A stretch of DNA of 64,000 bases. Origin: an uncultured delta proteobacterium (GTDB taxonomy: Bacteria > Desulfobacterota > Binatia > UBA9968). The notes below the pieces were generated by a model, which worked only from the letters and a program-made list of their open reading frames with translations, had not been told where the DNA came from and did no database searches. Below are positions 20,768-62,899 of this stretch, in pieces (within the stretch, counting starts at the first letter, position 1; the number at the start of each line of letters is the position of its first letter). The stretch covers positions 288,001 to 352,000 of the forward strand of contig CAWJZV010000046.1 of assembly GCA_963847445.1 (NCBI GenBank). The letters are read 5' to 3'. Made by a program: the position numbers and the translations under genes.

Positions 20768-20903
20768 GCGGCTTGGGCAAATTTCTCGATGCGCCAAAGC
20801 CAAGAGGGCGGGTTTCAAACCCGCCCCTACGACTCCCGATTCTTTTTTTGCGCCCTCTGCGTTCTTTGCGGCCATGCTTTTTTTCGGTCGCGGCTTCGCC
20901 GCG
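20768..20903. repeat. ~130-bp composite MITE-like repeat, copy 1
   Basis: Closely similar to 62775-62899 and to the inverted copy 44273-44396; contains a GTAG-type REP hairpin plus a 9-bp-unit arm. Confidence 0.85.
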
Positions 20904-21896: not shown

Positions 21897-22012
21897 TGGG
21901 TTAGCGATGTTCGTGCGGCGAGCATGCGCATCAAGAAGAGTGTCTCGCGCAAAGGGCGCCAAGGACGCAAAGGGAATGACTTCAGAGAAGCCAGCTCACG
22001 GGAAATCCGGAT

Positions 22013-29267: not shown

Positions 29268-29430
29268 TCCCGCAAAGGCTAAGTGACAGGTTAGAGGCCT
29301 GTCATCCCGAGCGAATGCGAGGGATCTAAGATGGATTTCTCCCTATCGGTCGAAATGACATAGCCCTTATTTTCCTTTGCGCCCTTAGCGTGCTTGGCGC
29401 GAGATATTCCGAATCTCGGTTGCCGCGGGG
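29268..29430. repeat. Composite element: 9-bp-unit arms around a GTCATCCCGAGCG...TCGAAATGAC REP-like core
   Basis: Related to the two inverted units at 49370-49727. Confidence 0.75.
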
Positions 29431-42429: not shown

Positions 42430-44252
42430 ATGAAAAGTCTCGCACAGCAGTTCAACGAGCTGCGCTATTCGTTCGTGCACACGCCGCAAGCGATTCGCTT
42501 TGTTTGGCGCAGCAATCATTGGGGCATCCTCGGTCTGGCTGTGCTGACGCTGGCCGGCGCGTTGTTGCCGGCGGCGCAGGCTTGGGTCGGCAAGCTGATC
42601 GTCGACGGCGTGGTGGCGGCGATCCAGCATGGCCAGGAGCATGAACAGGCGAAGTCGGTTTTTTACTATCTGGTCGTTGAACTGCGTACTGATCCTGTTC
42701 AGCACTGGGGTGATCCAGGCGCGCCGGCTGATTCAGCAGCTCACCCAACTCAAGCTCGCCAACCAGATTCGCGGTGAAATCATCGGCAAGGCGCTGACCC
42801 TGGACTTGGCGTTTTTCGAGCACCCGGAGTATTACGACAAGCTGCAAAACGCCCGGCGCGAGGGCGGTTACAAACCGGTGGAGCTGATCAACGATACCTT
42901 TCAGATCGTCCAAAATGCCATCACGCTGGCGTCCTTCGCGGTGTTGCTCTTGCGTTTCAGTCCGTGGCTGGTGGCGATTCTGGTTGTGACCAGCATCCCG
43001 GCGTTCATCGCCGAGACGCGCTTCTCGGGGCAAGGCTTTCGCCTGTTGACCCGGCGCGCACCCGAGAGCCGGCAGATCAACTATCTGTCCCGGCTGTTGA
43101 CCGAAGACTCCTCGGCCAAGGAGATCAAGCTTTTCAATTTGGGCGGCACGTTGCTGACCCGCTACATGACCCTGTTCGAGAAGTTTTTTCGCGAGGATAA
43201 GGCGCTCGCTTGCCGGCGCGCCATCGCCGGATTCAGCCTCGGCTTGATTGCGACGCTGGGCTTCTACGGCTCCTACGCCTGGATCGTCTGGCACACGGTG
43301 CAGAGCAGGATCTCGCTCGGCGATATGACGCTCTATCTGGCGATCTTTCGCCAGGGCCAGACGACCTTTCAATCGATTCTCTACGCTGTCAGCAGTATTT
43401 ACGAGAACAATCTGTTCATGTCGAATTTCTTCGAGTTTCTCGGCATGACGCCGCAATTGGCGATCGCCGCCCAGCCCAAAGTATTGCCGGCGACGCTGCG
43501 CGGCGGCATCGAGTTTCGCGATGTCGGTTTTCGTTATCCGGACAATGACGCAATGGGCGCTGCGCGGCGTCAATCTGATCATCCGGCCAGGCGAGAAGAT
43601 CGCGCTGGTCGGCCACAACGGCGCCGGCAAGACGACCCTGATCAAGCTCTTGAGCCGGCTCTACGATCCCACCGAGGGCTCGATCTTGATCGACGGCATC
43701 GATCTGCGCGAAGTCGATCCGCTCGCCTTGCGCCAGAAAATCGGCGTGATCTTCCAGGACTTCGTGCGCTATCACGTGCCGGTGAAGGAAAACATCGGCT
43801 TCGGCCAGATCGACGCGGTGGCGGATCTGGACCGGATCATCGAGTCGGCGCGCAAGAGCGGCGCCGATACGATCATCGACGGCTTGCCGGAAAGTTATGA
43901 CACCATGCTCGGCCGCTGGTTTCACGGCGGCCACGAGCTTTCCTTCGGCCAGTGGCAGAAGATCGCTTTGGCGCGGGCGTTCATGCGCGACGCCGAGATT
44001 CTCGTGCTCGACGAACCGACGGCATCGGTGGACGCCCAATCCGAGTACGAGATCTTTCGCCACTTTCAGGAGTTGACGGCGGGGAAGATGGCGATCCTGA
44101 TCTCCCATCGCTTTTCGACGGTGCGCATGGCCGATCGCATCGCGGTCATCGAAGGCGGCGCGATCAGCGAGATCGGCAGCCATCAAGAGCTGGTCGATCG
44201 CAAAGGCACCTACGCCCATTTGTTCAGCCTGCAGGCGGAAGGCTATCGCTAG
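42430..44252 (+). CDS. ABC exporter, fused permease/ATPase (frameshifted)
   Basis: TM domain; GHNGAGKT; LSFGQWQKIALARA; LDEPT; ISHR. Confidence 0.92.
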
Positions 44253-44272
44253 CGTCGTTTCTCGCGCTGCTG

Positions 44273-44396
44273 GCGCGGCAGAGCCGGAACTGAAAAGAAG
44301 AATGGCCGCAAAGAACGCAAAGGGCGCAAAAAAGTATCGGGGCGGGTGTGAAACCCGCACTCTTGGCTTTGGCGCATCGAGAAATTTGCCCAAACC
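44273..44396. repeat. ~130-bp composite MITE-like repeat, inverted copy
   Basis: Reverse complement of the 20768 and 62775 copies. Confidence 0.85.
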
Positions 44397-44714
44397 AGAC
44401 GAATTATCACGGATAGTACATACGTGGGGTCCCGTGCAAGGGGCGAGGCGCGCCTTGTCCCTGGGACTGATTCTTGTGCTGTTCGCCGTCGATATGCGAT
44501 TGTTGAGTCGCTTTAACATGCGGCTGCATAGGGATGGGCTTATCACCGGATTCACTGCGCATCGATATAGCGAAGGACGAGGTCGATCCCAAGAGCCGGC
44601 GCCGCGACGGCGTCAATTATCTCGACACCGATCAATGGCTGGCGAAGAAGCCGTGCTCAAAGTCGTCGACGACGCCTTGGCGGCGGCGGGAAAAAATAGC
44701 TCTAGAGGAGAAAT

Positions 44715-45477
44715 ATGAAACTGGCAACCTGGAACGTCAATTCCCTTAAAGTGCGTCTGCCCCATGTCTTGGAGTTTCTCGATCGGCACAAACCCGATGC
44801 GCTGTGCTTGCAGGAACTCAAGCTCGAAGATGCAAATTTTCCGCTGGCGGTTATCAACGCGGCGGGTTATCAGGCGGTGTACTCCGGCCAGAAGACCTAC
44901 AACGGCGTGGCGATACTGTCACCGACGGCTGCGGCTGACGTGAGCGCGGGTATCCCGGGCCTGGACGATCCGCAAAAGCGCGTGCTCGCAGCGACGGTGA
45001 ACGGCGTGCGCGTTGTCTGCGTGTACATCCCCAACGGCGAGGCGGTCGAATCTGACAAATACAAATACAAACTCGGCTGGCTGCAGGCGCTGATCACTGT
45101 GGTTGAAACAGGAATTGGCGGCCTATCCCAAGCTTGCGCTGTTGGGCGATTACAATGTCGCACCGGAGGACCGCGATGTTTACGATCCCAAGGCTTGGGC
45201 CGGCAAGGTGTTGTTTAGCGACCCGGAAAAAGCCGCGTTCAAAGATATGATCACCCTGGGGCTGACCGATAGTTTCCGCATGTTCGATCAAGCCGACAAG
45301 TCCTACAGCTGGTGGGACTACCGCATGAACGGCTTCAAGCGCAACCTAGGCCTGCGCATCGATCATATCCTGCTCTCAGCGGAACTGGCGAAGACGTGCA
45401 AGAGCTGCAGCATCGACATTGATTTCCGCGCCAAAGAGCGCCCTTCCGACCACGCGCCGGTGATCGTGGAGATTTAG
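44715..45477 (+). CDS. xth: Exodeoxyribonuclease III (1 frameshift)
   Basis: [10 protein letters not shown]; LCLQELK; [11 protein letters not shown]; WWDYR; GLRIDH; PSDHAP. Confidence 0.95.
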
Positions 45478-45488
45478 GATTCGGAATT

Positions 45489-46013
45489 TTAACCGCAAAG
45501 GACGCAAAGAACACAAAGTAAAATGACGGAACTAGAAATCAAAGCACTTATGTGATCGAGTTGTGCGGCAAACCGCGTACGACATTCACATATATCTTGG
45601 CACATGGTCACCTGGAGAAAGTTTATGAGAACGCTCTTGTCCATCGACTTCGGAAGGCTAGAATTAATGTGAATCAACAACATCCCCTCAGCGGTTGTCG
45701 ATGAAGATGGGACTTCTTGGGTGAGTATTTTGCGGATTTGTTGGTCGAAGATGTTTTGATCGTCGAGCTGAAAGGGCGCGAGTCACTGGCCGCTGAACAC
45801 GAAGCGTCAAGTTCTGGCGTATTTACGTCGGAGCTAAACTTGAACACGGCTTTACTTATCAATTTTGGTTCGCCAAAGTTCGAAATCCGAAAGTTTGCAC
45901 TGGTCAAAGCTCGCCGATGACATCAACTCATTACTAGAAAAGCTACGTTAGTCGAGTGTCGCTGACTTTCAGATCTGCCACATTTTTGCGTTCTTTGCGT
46001 TCTTTGCGGTTAA
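45489..46013. mobile_element. GxxExxY gene bracketed by 29-bp terminal inverted repeats of 9-bp units
   Basis: Left TTAACCGCAAAGGACGCAAAGAACACAAA; right is the reverse complement with 2 mismatches. Confidence 0.65.
45523..45920 (+). pseudogene. GxxExxY protein (many frameshifts)
   Basis: AYDIH..LG.GHLEKVYENALVHRL...GEYFADLLVEDVLIVELK...LLINFG. Confidence 0.88.
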
Positions 46014-46025
46014 CAATCCTTTTCT

Positions 46026-47147
46026 TCATTCGAAGTTATACATTCGCGCGCAGTTGTCCCAGAGCCATTTGCGTTTCATCTGTTCGGTGAAGGGTTGCTC
46101 CAGGAAGGTGTCGATGGCGTGGGGATATTTTACGTCTAGGTGCGGGTAGTCGGTGGAGAAGACCATGTTGTCTTCGAGGCCGTACTCGGGGATGTGTTTG
46201 GCGGTGACCTCGTCGCACTCCACGGCGCCGTAACAATTGCGCTGGAAGTATTCCAGCGGCGTCATCGTCAAATCCGGATATTCCGCCACGCCGGTGGTCT
46301 CGGCGTATTCGCCCATGCGCCACAGGAGCCAGGGCACCCAGGAACAGTTGCCTTCCAAGAACGCCACTTTCAGTTTGGGGAAGCGTTCCATGACGCCGCC
46401 GAAGATCATGTCGCCGCAGGCGAGCATATTCGCAAATGGAAAGCCGAAGGTGTTGAACATCGAGAAGGTCGAGCAGATGTGGAAGAACGCCGGCTGGGGC
46501 AGATAGACCCGGCCGGCTTCGTGGAAGCCCACCGGTAAATTCAACTTCTCGCACTCGGCCCAAAGCGGATCGTAGTAGGGGTCGCTCCATTTCTTGTTGT
46601 TGACATGATTGGGCCGGATAAAGATGCCGCGGAAACCGTATTCTTTCACGGTGCGGCGAATCTCTTCGATCGATCCGCTGATATCGTGCGGAGCGACCAT
46701 GGCGACGCCGAACATGCGCTTGGGGTCAGCCTGGGCGAAGTCGTGCAGCCAGTCGTTGTAAGCGCGGGCGATGGCGGTGGCGAAGTCGGGGTCGAGACCG
46801 TCGATGCCGAGTGCGGTGAGCGCCCGGGTTGGAAACAGAAAGGCGATATCCAGACCTTCTTTATCCATGGCTTGGAGTTGCGACACGCCGTCGAAGTTGC
46901 GTTTGCCGGCTTCGCCATATTTCTCATCGAAAAAGTCTTGACGGTATTTCGCCAGGGCGGGGTTTTCCGGCTGGCGCGGGATCGGCAGGACTTTGCCGTC
47001 GACCTCGATGCCGAGATCGCGGAAGGCGCGGTTCAATCCCTTGGGCGCGCGGTCGAGGTATTTTTTATCGATGTAGCGCTGCCATAGATCGGCGGGCTCG
47101 AAGACATGCATGTCGGAATCCATCGCTTTAAAACCGTTCTTGGCCAT
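46026..47147 (-). CDS. Amidohydrolase family protein (amidohydro_2)
   Basis: DSDMHVFEP; ARAYNDW; RFPKLKVAFLE; STDYPH. Confidence 0.93.
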   Translation of the reverse strand: MAKNGFKAMDSDMHVFEPADLWQRYIDKKYLDRAPKGLNRAFRDLGIEVDGKVLPIPRQPENPALAKYRQDFFDEKYGEAGKRNFDGVSQLQAMDKEGLDIAFLFPTRALTALGIDGLDPDFATAIARAYNDWLHDFAQADPKRMFGVAMVAPHDISGSIEEIRRTVKEYGFRGIFIRPNHVNNKKWSDPYYDPLWAECEKLNLPVGFHEAGRVYLPQPAFFHICSTFSMFNTFGFPFANMLACGDMIFGGVMERFPKLKVAFLEGNCSWVPWLLWRMGEYAETTGVAEYPDLTMTPLEYFQRNCYGAVECDEVTAKHIPEYGLEDNMVFSTDYPHLDVKYPHAIDTFLEQPFTEQMKRKWLWDNCARMYNFE

Positions 47148-47216
47148 TCTGTTTCTCCTTAAGTTAGATGGTGATTCAGGTTTGTTTGGACAGTGTGTTA
47201 GGTACGCGTGTTTGGT

Positions 47217-47294
47217 TCACCACGAAGGCACGAAGAGCACGAAGGTCGGAATAATATTTCCCAAACCTTCGCGTCCTTCGCGCCTTCGTGGTGA
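47217..47294. repeat. Inverted arms of (CACGAAGNN)n 9-bp units
   Basis: TCACCACGAAGGCACGAAGAGCACGAAGG...CCTTCGCGTCCTTCGCGCCTTCGTGGTGA. Confidence 0.85.
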
Positions 47295-47325
47295 GAAGTT
47301 CTTCACAGTAAACCTGGGAGTACGA

Positions 47326-48399
47326 TTATTGCACCGGCGATAAATACTTCAGCTCTTCCTTCATCTTGGGCGGCAGCGACAGCACTTCGTCAACCCACTT
47401 TTCGCATTCTTCGCCGGAGACGTAGTTGATGTCGAGTTTCAACTTAGCGGCTTGGGCGAGGAAATCGCCGTCGGCCAAGGTCGCCTTGAAGGCGCGCCGG
47501 AGGATTTCCAAGCGCTCTTTCGGCGTGTTGGGCGCAATAGTGAACGGGCGCGAGTATTCCATCTGCGCCATGTAGGCGCGATAGGCGCGCAGGTGATTCT
47601 CGTCTTTGATCGCCTCGCTGACGAGGGTCACGCCTTTCGCTTCAGCTTCGGGCACGCGGGCGTGCAGGATGAACGGAATCAAACGGTCGTCGCCTTTGCC
47701 GTCGAGCAAGTCCTTTTGCGTCGCCAAGATCGAGTCCCAGTTGGTGCAGTGGCCGTCGACCTCGCGGCGCTGCAAGGCGATCTTGATTTGCGCCGTGCCC
47801 TGGTAGCCCGATACCACGGCGAACTTGCTGCCGAGGGTTTTATTTAGCAAGAGCGGCATGTCGATGCTGTGCGAGCCCGGTCCAGTGCCGCCCATGCGCA
47901 GCGGTTTGGCCGATTTGACGATCTCGTCCATGGTCTTCGGCCCGGCGAAACCCATCACCAGGCATACCGGCACGCTCTTGCTCGGCGCGCCGAGCCAGCC
48001 GAACTTGCGCGCGTCGAACTTGACGTTGCGATCGCCCATCGCCTGATTGAAAACCAGCGCGCTGTTCCACATGCCGACGGTCAAGCCGTCCGGCTTGGCG
48101 TTATTGAAAATATAATTGGCCGCCACCAAGCTGCCGGCGCCGGTCATGTTGTCGGCCACGGTGGTCGGCCCGCCGGGTATATGTTTGCCGATGTAGCGCG
48201 CGATGGTGCGCGTGTAAGTATCGTAGCCGCCGCCGGCCGCCTGGCCGACGATGAAGCGAATGGTTTTGTCTTTGTAGAAATCTTGAGCGAGAGCCGGTTG
48301 AAGATTCGCCAGCAACAGCGACAGCCCGAGCGAACGCGCGACCAAAGCGCGGGAATTGGCCAGAAATTGGCTTTTCGAACCTAGCTGTCTGGATATCAC
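47326..48399 (-). CDS. TctC/Bug family substrate-binding protein
   Basis: FYKDKTIRFIVG..AGGGYD; NMTGAGSLVAAN; PDGL. Confidence 0.92.
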   Translation of the reverse strand: MISRQLGSKSQFLANSRALVARSLGLSLLLANLQPALAQDFYKDKTIRFIVGQAAGGGYDTYTRTIARYIGKHIPGGPTTVADNMTGAGSLVAANYIFNNAKPDGLTVGMWNSALVFNQAMGDRNVKFDARKFGWLGAPSKSVPVCLVMGFAGPKTMDEIVKSAKPLRMGGTGPGSHSIDMPLLLNKTLGSKFAVVSGYQGTAQIKIALQRREVDGHCTNWDSILATQKDLLDGKGDDRLIPFILHARVPEAEAKGVTLVSEAIKDENHLRAYRAYMAQMEYSRPFTIAPNTPKERLEILRRAFKATLADGDFLAQAAKLKLDINYVSGEECEKWVDEVLSLPPKMKEELKYLSPVQ

Positions 48400-48640
48400 A
48401 AACGGCCTCCGTGGCTTATACCATGTCTCTCTTGTGGCGTCTTTGAAATAGTAATCAACAAATCGGCATGAAATTTCAATAGTTCACGTGGATTACCGCG
48501 TGCCCGTGAATGACGAAAAAGAAAAAGTTGACTTCAATTGCGGCGCATTCTTGTGGCACCGCCTGCCATAGTTTAGTCTAAAAGTAAGAGATTCTTCGCC
48601 TGCGGTTCTTGTGCAGTTGTCGCCAGCGGGAGGGTATACG

Positions 48641-49301
48641 ATGAAAACTCGACTAATTTTGTTTGCTGATTGCGGTATTTGCGCTGTTCTCTGTGGCGAC
48701 TACCGTGCATGCCACCATGCAGGACGATGTCGACCAGGCGTTATCGATTATCGAGCGTTTTGGCGAGATCCCGGAGACGGCGATTCCGCCGGCGGTCATG
48801 CGCGACGCCAAGGGTGTGGCGATCTTCGCCATGACCAAAGCCGGTTTCGTGGTCAGCGGCAGGGGCGGAACGGGAGTTGTCCTGGCGCGCACGCCGACGG
48901 GTTGGAGCGGTCCCTCGGCGATCGGTACAGGAGGCGTCGGAGTCGGCTTCCAAGCGGGGGTGCAGGTCACCGAGCACGTGATGATTCTCAACACTCCGGA
49001 GGCGATCAAGGCTTTCACACAAGGCACCAATTTTACACTCGGGGCCAATCTAAGCGTCGCGGTGGGTCCGGTCGGTCGTTCAGCCGAGGCCGGTGTCGCG
49101 CCAAAGGCCGCGATATACACTTACAGCCGCAGCCAAGGAATTTTTGCCGGAGTGTCCCTGGAGGGCACGGCGGTTGCCACCCGCTATGAAGCGAATGAGG
49201 AGTTTTACGGCAAGCCGGTCTATCCGGCCGATATTCTTGAGGGTAAGATTACGCCGCCGGCGAGTGCGCAGAAACTGTTGGATGCGCTGGCGAAATACTG
49301 A
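48641..49301 (+). CDS. Ysc84/SYLF lipid-binding domain protein (5' frameshift)
   Basis: KAGFVVSGRGGTGV; WSGP; GFQAG; YSRSQGIFAGVSLEG. Confidence 0.9.
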
Positions 49302-49369
49302 CTCCGCCGCTGATCCGAGTTGTCAGGGATAAGCCGGTTGCGGGATGGATCATTCGATGGCTCGGATAT

Positions 49370-49727
49370 TTCTCCCGCAAAGGCGCAAAGGCGCTAAGTG
49401 ACGGGGCAAGGCCCGTCATCCGAACGGCAACGGAGGGATTAAGAGAGATTTCTCCCTTCGGTCGAAATGACATGATGCTCTTGTCTACGTGCTTTTGCTC
49501 TGCTTGGGCAAATTTCCCGGTGATCTAAAATGCTCGAACACGGGGATTGACTCCCGCCAAGGCGCAAAGTACGCCAATTTCGGAATCGTTGTCATTTCGA
49601 CCCTTGGGAACTTTCTCGATCCCTCGTGTCCCCTCGGGATGACGGGCATCGCCCGTCACCTTTGCGGCCTTGGCGACTTTGCGGGAGATATTCCGAGGTT
49701 CGGTTGCGACGCGGGCCGTGCTGCGCT
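49370..49727. repeat. Two inverted composite elements (9-bp-unit arms plus REP-like core)
   Basis: TCCCGCAAAGGCGCAAAGGCGCTAAG...TCGAAATGAC and its inverse ...CTTTGCGGCCTTGGCGACTTTGCGGGAGA. Confidence 0.75.
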
Positions 49728-49762
49728 GTCGTTTTGTTGCGAAGCTTGATACAAACGACGGC

Positions 49763-51058
49763 GTGCAAGCTTTGTCCGACTCTGAACCGCCCATCAAACC
49801 TGCGAAGTTTTTCTACGGCTGGACCATTGTCGCCGTCGGTTTTCTCGCGCATATCGCCTCCGCTTTTACGATTTCGAGCACGCTCAGTGTCTTTCTCAAA
49901 CCGTTGTCGAGCGATCTTGGCGTCTCGCGCGGTGTCTTTTCCCTGGTTCGCTCGGGCGAAGTTCTGATCGGCGCCGTGGCCGCGCCGCTCGTCGGCACGC
50001 TGCTGGATCGTCACGGTTGTCGTGGACTCATGGCCGCAGGCGGGGTTATCGCGGGGCTGGGCTTGCTGCTGCTCGGCCAGGTGCGGGATTTTTGGCAGTT
50101 TCTCTTGGTCCGCTGGCTGATTCTCAGTCCTGGCGACACGCTCATGGGGAACATGGTTGTGAACGTGACGATCTCGCGCTGGTTCATCCGCATGCGCGGC
50201 CGCGCCCTGGCGTTCGCGGGCATGGGCCACGGCCTGGCCAAAGTATTGATGCCGCTGTGCGCCGCGTCGCTGATCGCCTACGCTGGCTGGCGCGGCACCT
50301 GGGTGGTATTCGGCCTGTTAACCTTGACGTTGGTGGTCGGACCGTCGCTGCTGTTCATGCGGCGAAGTCCTGAGGACCTGGGTTTGCTTCCAGACGGAAA
50401 ATTGGCCGCCGACAATGACAGCGGCGGGGTGAAAGCGGATGGCAAGAATAAGAAATCCAATCGAGCTGCAACCGACGACGTCGAGTGGACGCGCGGCGAA
50501 GCGCTGCGCACGCCGGCTTTCTGGCTCATCGTCACGACTTTCGGCGTCGCCCATATCGGCGTCAGCGGGCTCAATCTGCACGTCTTCTCCTTCGTCAGCG
50601 ATCAAGGCCATCCGGCGACGGTCGCTGCCCTAGTCATGAGCACCATCGCGATCATGCAGTTCAGCACGCCGATCGTCTGGGGGTTGTGCGCCGAGCGCAT
50701 CAGCATCGGCCGGGTCATCATGGCCAAGTTCGTGATTCAAGCCGCCGGGATTTCCTTGGCTCTGTCTGACCCTGGGTTGGTTTCCCTCTATGCCGGGTTT
50801 TTTCTATATGGCATCGGCATGGGTGGAACGTCGATACTGGCCGAATTGATCTGGGCCAACTACTTTGGCCGCGTTTCCCTCGGCAAGATTCGCGGTTTAG
50901 GCTCCTTGGTCACCCACGGCTTCAGCGCCGGCGGCCCGCCGTTTTTCGGTTTTCTCTTCGACGCCACGCAAAGTTATATGCTGTCGTTCACTATCTTCGT
51001 CGGCCTGCTGATCGTTTCAGCGGTGCTGAGTTTGTTCCTTCGGCCGCCGACGAAGTAG
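49763..51058 (+). CDS. MFS transporter
   Basis: FYGWTIV; GTLLDRHG; ISRWF..RGRALA; many TM segments. Confidence 0.9.
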   Translation: MQALSDSEPPIKPAKFFYGWTIVAVGFLAHIASAFTISSTLSVFLKPLSSDLGVSRGVFSLVRSGEVLIGAVAAPLVGTLLDRHGCRGLMAAGGVIAGLGLLLLGQVRDFWQFLLVRWLILSPGDTLMGNMVVNVTISRWFIRMRGRALAFAGMGHGLAKVLMPLCAASLIAYAGWRGTWVVFGLLTLTLVVGPSLLFMRRSPEDLGLLPDGKLAADNDSGGVKADGKNKKSNRAATDDVEWTRGEALRTPAFWLIVTTFGVAHIGVSGLNLHVFSFVSDQGHPATVAALVMSTIAIMQFSTPIVWGLCAERISIGRVIMAKFVIQAAGISLALSDPGLVSLYAGFFLYGIGMGGTSILAELIWANYFGRVSLGKIRGLGSLVTHGFSAGGPPFFGFLFDATQSYMLSFTIFVGLLIVSAVLSLFLRPPTK

Positions 51059-56528: not shown

Positions 56529-56685
56529 TCGGAGATTTGGCCGCAAAGAACGCAAAGTTCGCAAGTCACCACGAAGTGCACGAAGATCACGAAGGTGAGG
56601 ACTAATTGATTCCGAACTTCGTGTCCGTCGTGCCTTCGCGGTGACGAGGAATTTGCGTGATCAGAGCAATCTGGTGAAAGGCAAT

Positions 56686-62774: not shown

Positions 62775-62899
62775 GCGGCTTGGGCAAAGCCTCTCGATGC
62801 GCCAAATCCGAGAGGGCGGGTTTCAACCCCGCCCCTACGACTCCCAATTCTTTTTTGCGCCCTTTGCGTTCTTTGCGGCCATTCTTCTTTTCGGTTGCG
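62775..62899. repeat. ~130-bp composite MITE-like repeat, copy 3
   Basis: Matches 20768-20903. Confidence 0.85.

Follow-up and report, generated by a model that had tools for sequence, protein, structure and literature searches.

Partnerships between a small nuclease gene and a dispersed repeat are known from the Ssn proteins with their SRM/NTS sequences and from the RAYT proteins with their REP/REPIN sequences. Ssn proteins are GIY-YIG enzymes encoded by small single-domain nuclease genes flanked by their own repeat, and SsnA cuts single-stranded DNA at these flanking repeats (Chenal et al. 2025, PMC11893778); the parts of that paper dealing with Ssn describe the SRM as itself a hairpin, report hundreds of gene-less intergenic copies whose abundance goes with the presence of the gene, and pair repeat variants with protein variants. 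RAYT proteins are tyrosine transposases related to IS200, and the sections on them in PMC5581495, PMC3116915 and PMC3733652 describe a gene typically present in single copy among its repeats, extragenic repeats that form inverted doublets, and RAYT trees that, below genus level, for the most part agree with those of the hosts. The ORF-bearing intervening sequences of 23S rRNA genes, as treated in part of PMC4990558, offer a third comparison, with a small ORF enclosed in a terminal stem of about 28 bp and a sporadic distribution. The GxxExxY (PDDEXK_3) family is of unknown function and has undergone multiple transfers (PMC3424549), and the sections of that paper on the family mention neither flanking repeats nor mobility.

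In this study, we describe a GxxExxY gene that, unlike the family as presented there, stands between inverted repeat arms, in a window of 64,000 nucleotides (the whole stretch of DNA analysed) from an uncultured delta proteobacterium. The cassette most resembles the Ssn/SRM and RAYT/REP pairs and, by analogy, would work like them while belonging to neither, because its predicted enzyme fold differs, its arms are periodic and non-palindromic, and its inheritance is not vertical. As is asked of an Ssn/SRM pair, the cassette gene is flanked on both sides by a genome-abundant repeat, and the gene-less intergenic copies, the link between gene presence and repeat abundance and the pairing of repeat with protein variants all recur here. 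Unlike Ssn, the cassette protein is of predicted PD-(D/E)xK type, its arms are tandem 9-mers that pair with the opposite arm only, its cutting is what we infer where that of Ssn has been demonstrated, and the slot swapping and flipping seen for the cassette are absent from the parts of PMC11893778 on Ssn. The preliminary description of this DNA had drawn the analogy with RAYT/REP, with a PD-(D/E)xK enzyme in place of the transposase, and this fits the profile matches and the predicted fold; the likeness extends to the single gene copy and the extragenic repeats and perhaps to the inverted doublets, whereas the cassette protein is not a tyrosine transposase, its gene tree is incongruent with that of the hosts, the GTAG/CGTC tag is missing and the arms of the cassette's own kind (type B, below) are mostly singlets. 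From the 23S rRNA intervening sequences the cassette differs in lying outside an rRNA gene, in carrying a putative nuclease and in its periodic, dispersed arms. No published description of arms around GxxExxY genes was found in a search of the main texts of openly accessible papers, and as far as that search extended the arms are a real and undescribed feature.

The cassette sits between xth and a convergent amidohydrolase gene, as the preliminary description had it, and the inverted arms reported there (45489-45517 and 45985-46013, matching at 27 of 29 positions) were recovered together with TTAA as the outermost bases of both type B arms and an ATG at 45523, 5 nt beyond the left arm (Table 1). 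Each arm indeed holds three 9-bp units, but the proposed unit CGCAAAGRA is not uniform, since the third unit reads CACAAAG on the left and CGCAAAA on the right. CGCAAAG units are likewise present at every gene-less site that had been listed, yet they belong to two subfamilies rather than to a single kind of arm. Type B arms (TAACC/TGGCC-RCAAAG, at 20855, 44303, 56538 and 62862) are of the same kind as those of the 45489-46013 cassette, and type A arms (TCTCYCGCAAAG-GCGC, at 21946, 29268-29405 and 49372-49690) are those of another GxxExxY clade in the same genus.

Table 1. Arms, gene-less repeats and genes at and around the cassette, in window coordinates.
Feature	Position	Strand	Basis or remark
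Left arm, type B	45489..45517	+	TTAAC and three 9-bp CRCAAAG units; column conservation from 53 arm pairs
Right arm, inverted copy of left (27/29)	45985..46013	-	Sequence comparison
GxxExxY (TIGR04256 / PF13366 PDDEXK_3) putative nuclease gene; frame broken in this assembly; sequence mixes two allele types	45523..45920, 3' end approximate	+	HMM match 45597-45896
xth (exodeoxyribonuclease III), host gene	44715..45477	+	Single-base frameshift near 45096
Amidohydrolase (PF04909), host gene; its 3' end is the constant slot border	46026..47147	-	
Type B arm core, gene-less	20855..20874	-	
Type B arm core, gene-less	44303..44322	+	
Type B arm core, gene-less, with a CACGAAG-type doublet following it	56538..56557	+	
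Type B arm core, gene-less	62862..62881	-	
Type A arm doublet, gene-less, around GTCAT...ATGAC palindrome; partner is a different GxxExxY clade	29268..29405	.	
Type A arm cluster with nested palindromes	49372..49690	.	
CACGAAG-type doublet, gene-less; from a related family of arms that in relatives goes with a third GxxExxY clade	47217..47294	.	

The arms are real and far above chance. The window contains 32 copies of the CGCAAAG heptamer, where shuffled sequences give 18.0 +/- 3.6, and two-unit arms of the broad CGCAAAG class number 359 genome-wide against 6 in one triplet-block shuffle. Within this broad class, 82 of 99 close pairs are arranged head-to-head as in the cassette, and type B alone forms 10 doublets among 112 arms. 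By crude ORF calls, 9 of 94 type B arms lie within ORFs of at least 150 aa and 32 of 94 start no more than 60 nt past a same-strand stop. Mismatches between the two arms of a cassette are biased, an A in the 5' arm facing a G in the 3' arm 83 times and the reverse 42 times among 53 arm pairs; such mismatches permit G-T pairs on the strand opposite the gene and could hint at a strand-specific substrate.

Further repeats accompany these arms in the same genome. GTCAT...ATGAC palindromes, which presumably resemble the repeats of the GIY-YIG Ssn nucleases, are nested inside type A arms at window positions 29290-29365 and 49400-49640, and other periodic families comprise TTGAAC-type (355 arms, with pairs mostly in the opposite geometry), CACGAAG (222) and TGGAGTA (152) repeats. 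The cyanobacterial STRR and SDR repeats are a possible parallel to the GxxExxY arms. TIGR02436 four-helix-bundle genes, with no known catalytic domain and of what we take to be the S23p family, lie between inverted arms of about 7-bp units (AAAAGTA-like, AAATTCG-like) at three loci (L224:338-715, L225:366-737 and L226:1253-1612; contigs C46, C2 and C27, respectively), and a DUF559-like gene (L227:388-747, C3) is flanked by TCCCCCTTT palindromic repeats as a further nuclease-repeat pair. Two more GxxExxY genes of this genome (L001 and L002; C18 and C27), both apparently broken, have other arms, of the AACAGGAG type and with type A CGCAAAG upstream.

That the gene encodes a PD-(D/E)xK-type protein, as had been suggested from its motifs, agrees with both the predicted fold and the conserved D and ExK. 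An intact allele reaches 114.6 and 109.3 bits against TIGR04256 and PF13366, above both curated cut-offs; PF13366 is the sole Pfam match, the only profiles matched being PDDEXK_3 / GxxExxY, with neither GIY-YIG nor tyrosine (HUH) transposase among them. Its structural model (pLDDT 94) has Cas4 SSO0001, MGME1 and phage exonucleases as top Foldseek matches, and a wide structure search returned many PD-(D/E)xK members at Z 6-8.4 (best Z 8.4, rmsd 2.5, 95 aligned), with no close solved relative in these searches. Five residues that played no part in the selection of sequences are conserved almost throughout 77 proteins (D70 in 76, E80 and K82 in 77, Q94 and Y98 in 76). The QxxxY motif is a mark of RecB/Cas4-type enzymes, several of which act on single-stranded DNA. 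Median dN/dS is 0.10, for the 9 of 78 pairs with finite dS, and judged from alignment and model the gene is a small PD-(D/E)xK putative nuclease gene under purifying selection.

Alleles of the slot without the cassette, anticipated by the preliminary description, do occur in relatives. Our survey took in 72 loci with amidohydrolase identity of at least 84% (19 from genomes and 53 from metagenome contigs), more distant loci at 66-73% being left out; removal of three loci without a gene end and two with a short flank gave 67 orthologous slots, some of them near-duplicate rows, in which the cassette is forward in 13 and flipped in 12, arms only are present in 5, and neither is found in 37. Intact alleles of 122-137 aa occupy the same slot in relatives, and presence of the cassette changed at least 11 times on the host tree. 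In one relative (G002) the gap measures 184 bp and retains both arms together with no more than the beginning of the gene, an internal-deletion derivative, and at L110 xth is joined to the amidohydrolase without any element. Among close relatives, the unit in the slot has been replaced by deeply divergent alleles, inverted, lost, or reduced by internal deletion. The outer borders of the cassette vary among alleles, and no target duplication is visible at the slot, where element-free junctions such as L110 are too divergent from filled alleles to place the insertion. TTAA as a target duplication was ruled out, as it is part of the arm and the TGGCC and TAGCC alleles do without it. No public run contained half of the sequence words screened, and no cassette-removing joint or spanning piece was listed among the contigs of four public DNA runs, which is a weak result. 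The slot of L013 (G008) holds an unrelated-looking 70-bp hairpin with ends GGCC...GGCC ATTC like those of TGGCC-type cassettes. In many relatives the gap between xth and the amidohydrolase contains a small gene, taken by eye for an ABM-type monooxygenase, and at L015, L018 and L074 a single truncated TTAACCGCAAA(A/G)G arm is found directly upstream of this small gene.

Both arms could be recovered at 20 of 25 gene-bearing slot loci, and left and right arms co-vary as TAACCAC, TAACCGC or TGGCCGC. Across these 20 rows, arm type changes twice on the gene tree, which is the minimum, against nine times on the host tree, and the gene and its arm type are inherited as one unit. The host clade G000/G003/G004 (support 100/99), which was fixed before the gene tree was inspected, is rejected on the gene tree (p-AU 1e-75), and two host sister pairs continue to be rejected when the chimeric copy of the window is left out (p-AU 6e-05 and 3e-61), p-values that are overstated owing to kin genomes and loci and near-duplicate rows. 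The amidohydrolase DNA of G003 and G004 is 94.3% identical and their cassette genes are 63.3% identical, and together with the tree conflict this contrast indicates that whole cassettes were exchanged at the slot more recently than the hosts diverged. When 13 intact slot alleles were set against 31 outside homologs, a single clade of slot alleles was not rejected (p-AU 0.46), and ordinary allele exchange within the genus can therefore explain the incongruence; repeated invasion of the slot from other phyla, hinted at by a quick tree, was not upheld by this AU test. Long co-conversion tracts were not found in the flanking genes in 100-bp bins, the one departure being a slight dip in the last xth bin for G004.

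The copy in the window itself matches its family, as had been claimed (70.5 bits against TIGR04256, cut-off 35), but it is not a readable gene, being interrupted by stops and several indels. Alignment with the alleles of relatives makes it a fine-grained mosaic of the L006 and L065 types: these two jointly cover 95.5% of its bases, a larger share than for any other of 20 alleles (83-93.5%), and its indels hold bases of both types. Six alleles of different clades have the window copy as their best single match. Frameshifts also split the ABC transporter gene (42430-44252) and xth (44715-45477). In contigs of three public runs the extra base behind the xth frameshift near 45096 is missing, so that indel errors must be present in the assembly; one contig (run X1) is also without three of the insertions of the window gene. 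The window copy is thus probably, to judge from its composition, an assembly consensus over a population with at least two cassette types at the slot. A true decaying pseudogene or a natural recombinant, in place of an assembly blend, is unlikely in view of the joint coverage, the two-type indels and the public contigs, although broken copies exist in some relatives too (G019). Calls of pseudogenes at such slots in long-read MAGs may likewise be consensus blends of swapped alleles.

Beyond the slot, a scan of species genomes yielded 80 loci of the cassette's GxxExxY clade, of which 70 were scored after three close relatives and seven short-flank loci had been dropped. An inverted match of at least 19/24 spans the gene at 54 of the 70 (one of them, L212, in the same xth-amidohydrolase slot), the corresponding counts being 1 of 192 for shifted windows and 12 of 1191 for small ORFs from the genome to which the window belongs, so that the proposed tie between arms and GxxExxY genes is upheld. 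By protein similarity the 70 loci form 52 flank groups. Most arm-bearing outside loci have the same TAACCRCARAG word, and by record title the outside loci come from Verrucomicrobiota (the majority), Planctomycetota, Acidobacteriota, Chloroflexota and others. Within the genus, different arm words (CACGAAG, TCTCCCGCAAAG, CACAGAG) accompany other GxxExxY clades. At a histidine kinase / response regulator junction, assumed to be orthologous among seven loci (L035, L040, L041, L045, L049, L057, L060), either a CACGAAG-arm GxxExxY cassette or a type A cassette of another clade is present.

The cassette's clade was found in 14 of 123 genomes of the order, with one copy each; all 10 copies of the genus lie in the same slot, as does one copy from another genus. 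Within the genus, the median count of type B arms is 73 with the gene (n=10) against 7 without it (n=21), a contrast whose nominal p of 2e-4 is overstated because the genomes are related. Gene-less arms are thus abundant mostly where the gene is present, with the clear exception of G023, where 158 type B arms were counted and 650 contigs yielded no gene. The subtype of free arms tracks the resident cassette loosely: G004 has a TAACCAC cassette, and its free arms are 43 TGGCCGC against 12 TAACCAC, so that a strict rule by which free arms follow the resident type was set aside as only a partial match. Gaps with such arms in either genome, compared between G000 and G003/G004, have a median identity of 0.54 (n=26) against 0.80 for repeat-free gaps (n=92) at similar flank identity, a comparison that is partly circular and may include consensus errors in G000. 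Orthologous gaps are often occupied by unlike repeat families, in some cases with one repeat lying within an arm of a second, and among the orthologous sites aligned to G000 (11 in G003 and 7 in G004) there was neither a clean empty/filled pair nor a target duplication for gene-less arms, the counterpart genome having in most cases a further or nested repeat at the site.

We favour, with a probability of about one in two, a single-copy nuclease-plus-repeat system in which the protein would recognise its own arm word and cut there, and repair against a similar arm would overwrite the slot. Arm recognition and cutting are what we infer for the GxxExxY protein, which would bind its word probably as single-stranded or hairpin DNA and nick or cut beside its arm; repair using a similar arm, carried on incoming DNA or located at another chromosomal site, would then replace the slot content. 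A single cut-and-repair step of this kind would account for allele swaps and inversions as well as for deletion derivatives and for gene-less arms, dispersed or nested, with no need of a transposase or a target duplication. Counter-points to this nuclease-repeat reading are G023 with its arms and no gene, the loose match of free-arm subtypes, the few type B doublets, and the TIGR02436 four-helix-bundle genes, which lie in the same genome between periodic inverted arms of other words; because these non-nuclease genes show similar arms, the layout alone needs no nuclease. The same layout around the four-helix-bundle and DUF559 genes is what one would expect if the cassette gene were passive cargo, the arms being generic recombination or RNA-hairpin signals, the nuclease acting elsewhere (e.g. 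in defence), and old alleles being held by balancing selection and exchanged by homologous recombination via the flanking genes. Such an explanation would also suit slot alleles that may be one resident clade, a single copy per genome in a fixed slot, and arm-bearing gaps that often hold other repeat families in sister genomes. We nevertheless find it doubtful, as the protein clade retains its arm word across phyla and 52 flank groups, the words of different GxxExxY clades stay distinct in one genus, and arm abundance follows gene presence.

The preliminary description had seen an autonomous element, that is, a transposon whose protein excises or copies the arm-gene-arm unit to new sites and also mobilises derivatives lacking the gene. 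Terminal inverted repeats, patchy presence in both orientations, the internal-deletion derivative of G002 and the spread of the 70 loci over 52 flank groups in other taxa agree with such a transposon, while one copy in each of 14 genomes of the order, the common slot of all 10 genus copies and of one from another genus, outer borders that differ among alleles with no visible target duplication and, weakly, the lack of a cassette-removing joint among the contigs of four public runs make it quite improbable. Because it is single-copy and no target duplication is seen, the cassette is very probably not an IS-like autonomous transposon; in that sense the term is not supported, given also the fixed slot, the TTAA that belongs to the arm and a window gene that cannot be read. 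An RNA-level element like the 23S rRNA intervening sequences, in which the arms would form a stem in the transcript and RNase III would excise the gene with the host genes unharmed, is in our judgement very improbable. The arms close a predicted long stem when an intact allele is folded as RNA (z -2.83), and S23p ORFs are described inside intervening-sequence stems in part of PMC4990558, but the slot lies between two stop codons and not inside an RNA gene, Rfam gave no match across window positions 44200-50000, G-U wobble is possible 44 times on the gene-sense strand against 89 times on the opposite strand (among 53 non-independent pairs), and most type B arms are not in doublets.

A bolder extension of the nuclease-repeat reading, which we put forward tentatively, is that GxxExxY proteins are arm-specific nucleases programmable by evolution, whose cassettes would compete for intergenic slots by cutting resident arms and being copied in by repair, in a homing-like manner with no transposase. 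Rival arm types would then displace each other so quickly that two 65%-identical alleles coexist in one population, and the nested intergenic mosaics would be the footprints of such overwriting.

The locus adds a tree-tested allelic series at one slot, together with signs of two alleles in one population, and points to a possible partnership of nuclease and repeat by which DNA between genes is rearranged. In a very widespread family without known function, each clade thereby gains a concrete candidate substrate. If the protein cuts its arms, it would join RAYT/REP and Ssn/SRM as a third independent case of a nuclease paired with a repeat, here with a PD-(D/E)xK domain of 120-130 residues, and would be a possible source of compact sequence-specific nucleases. 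If true, a large part of the intergenic repeats of these soil and water bacteria would be accounted for as well, along with the rapid turnover of their intergenic DNA.
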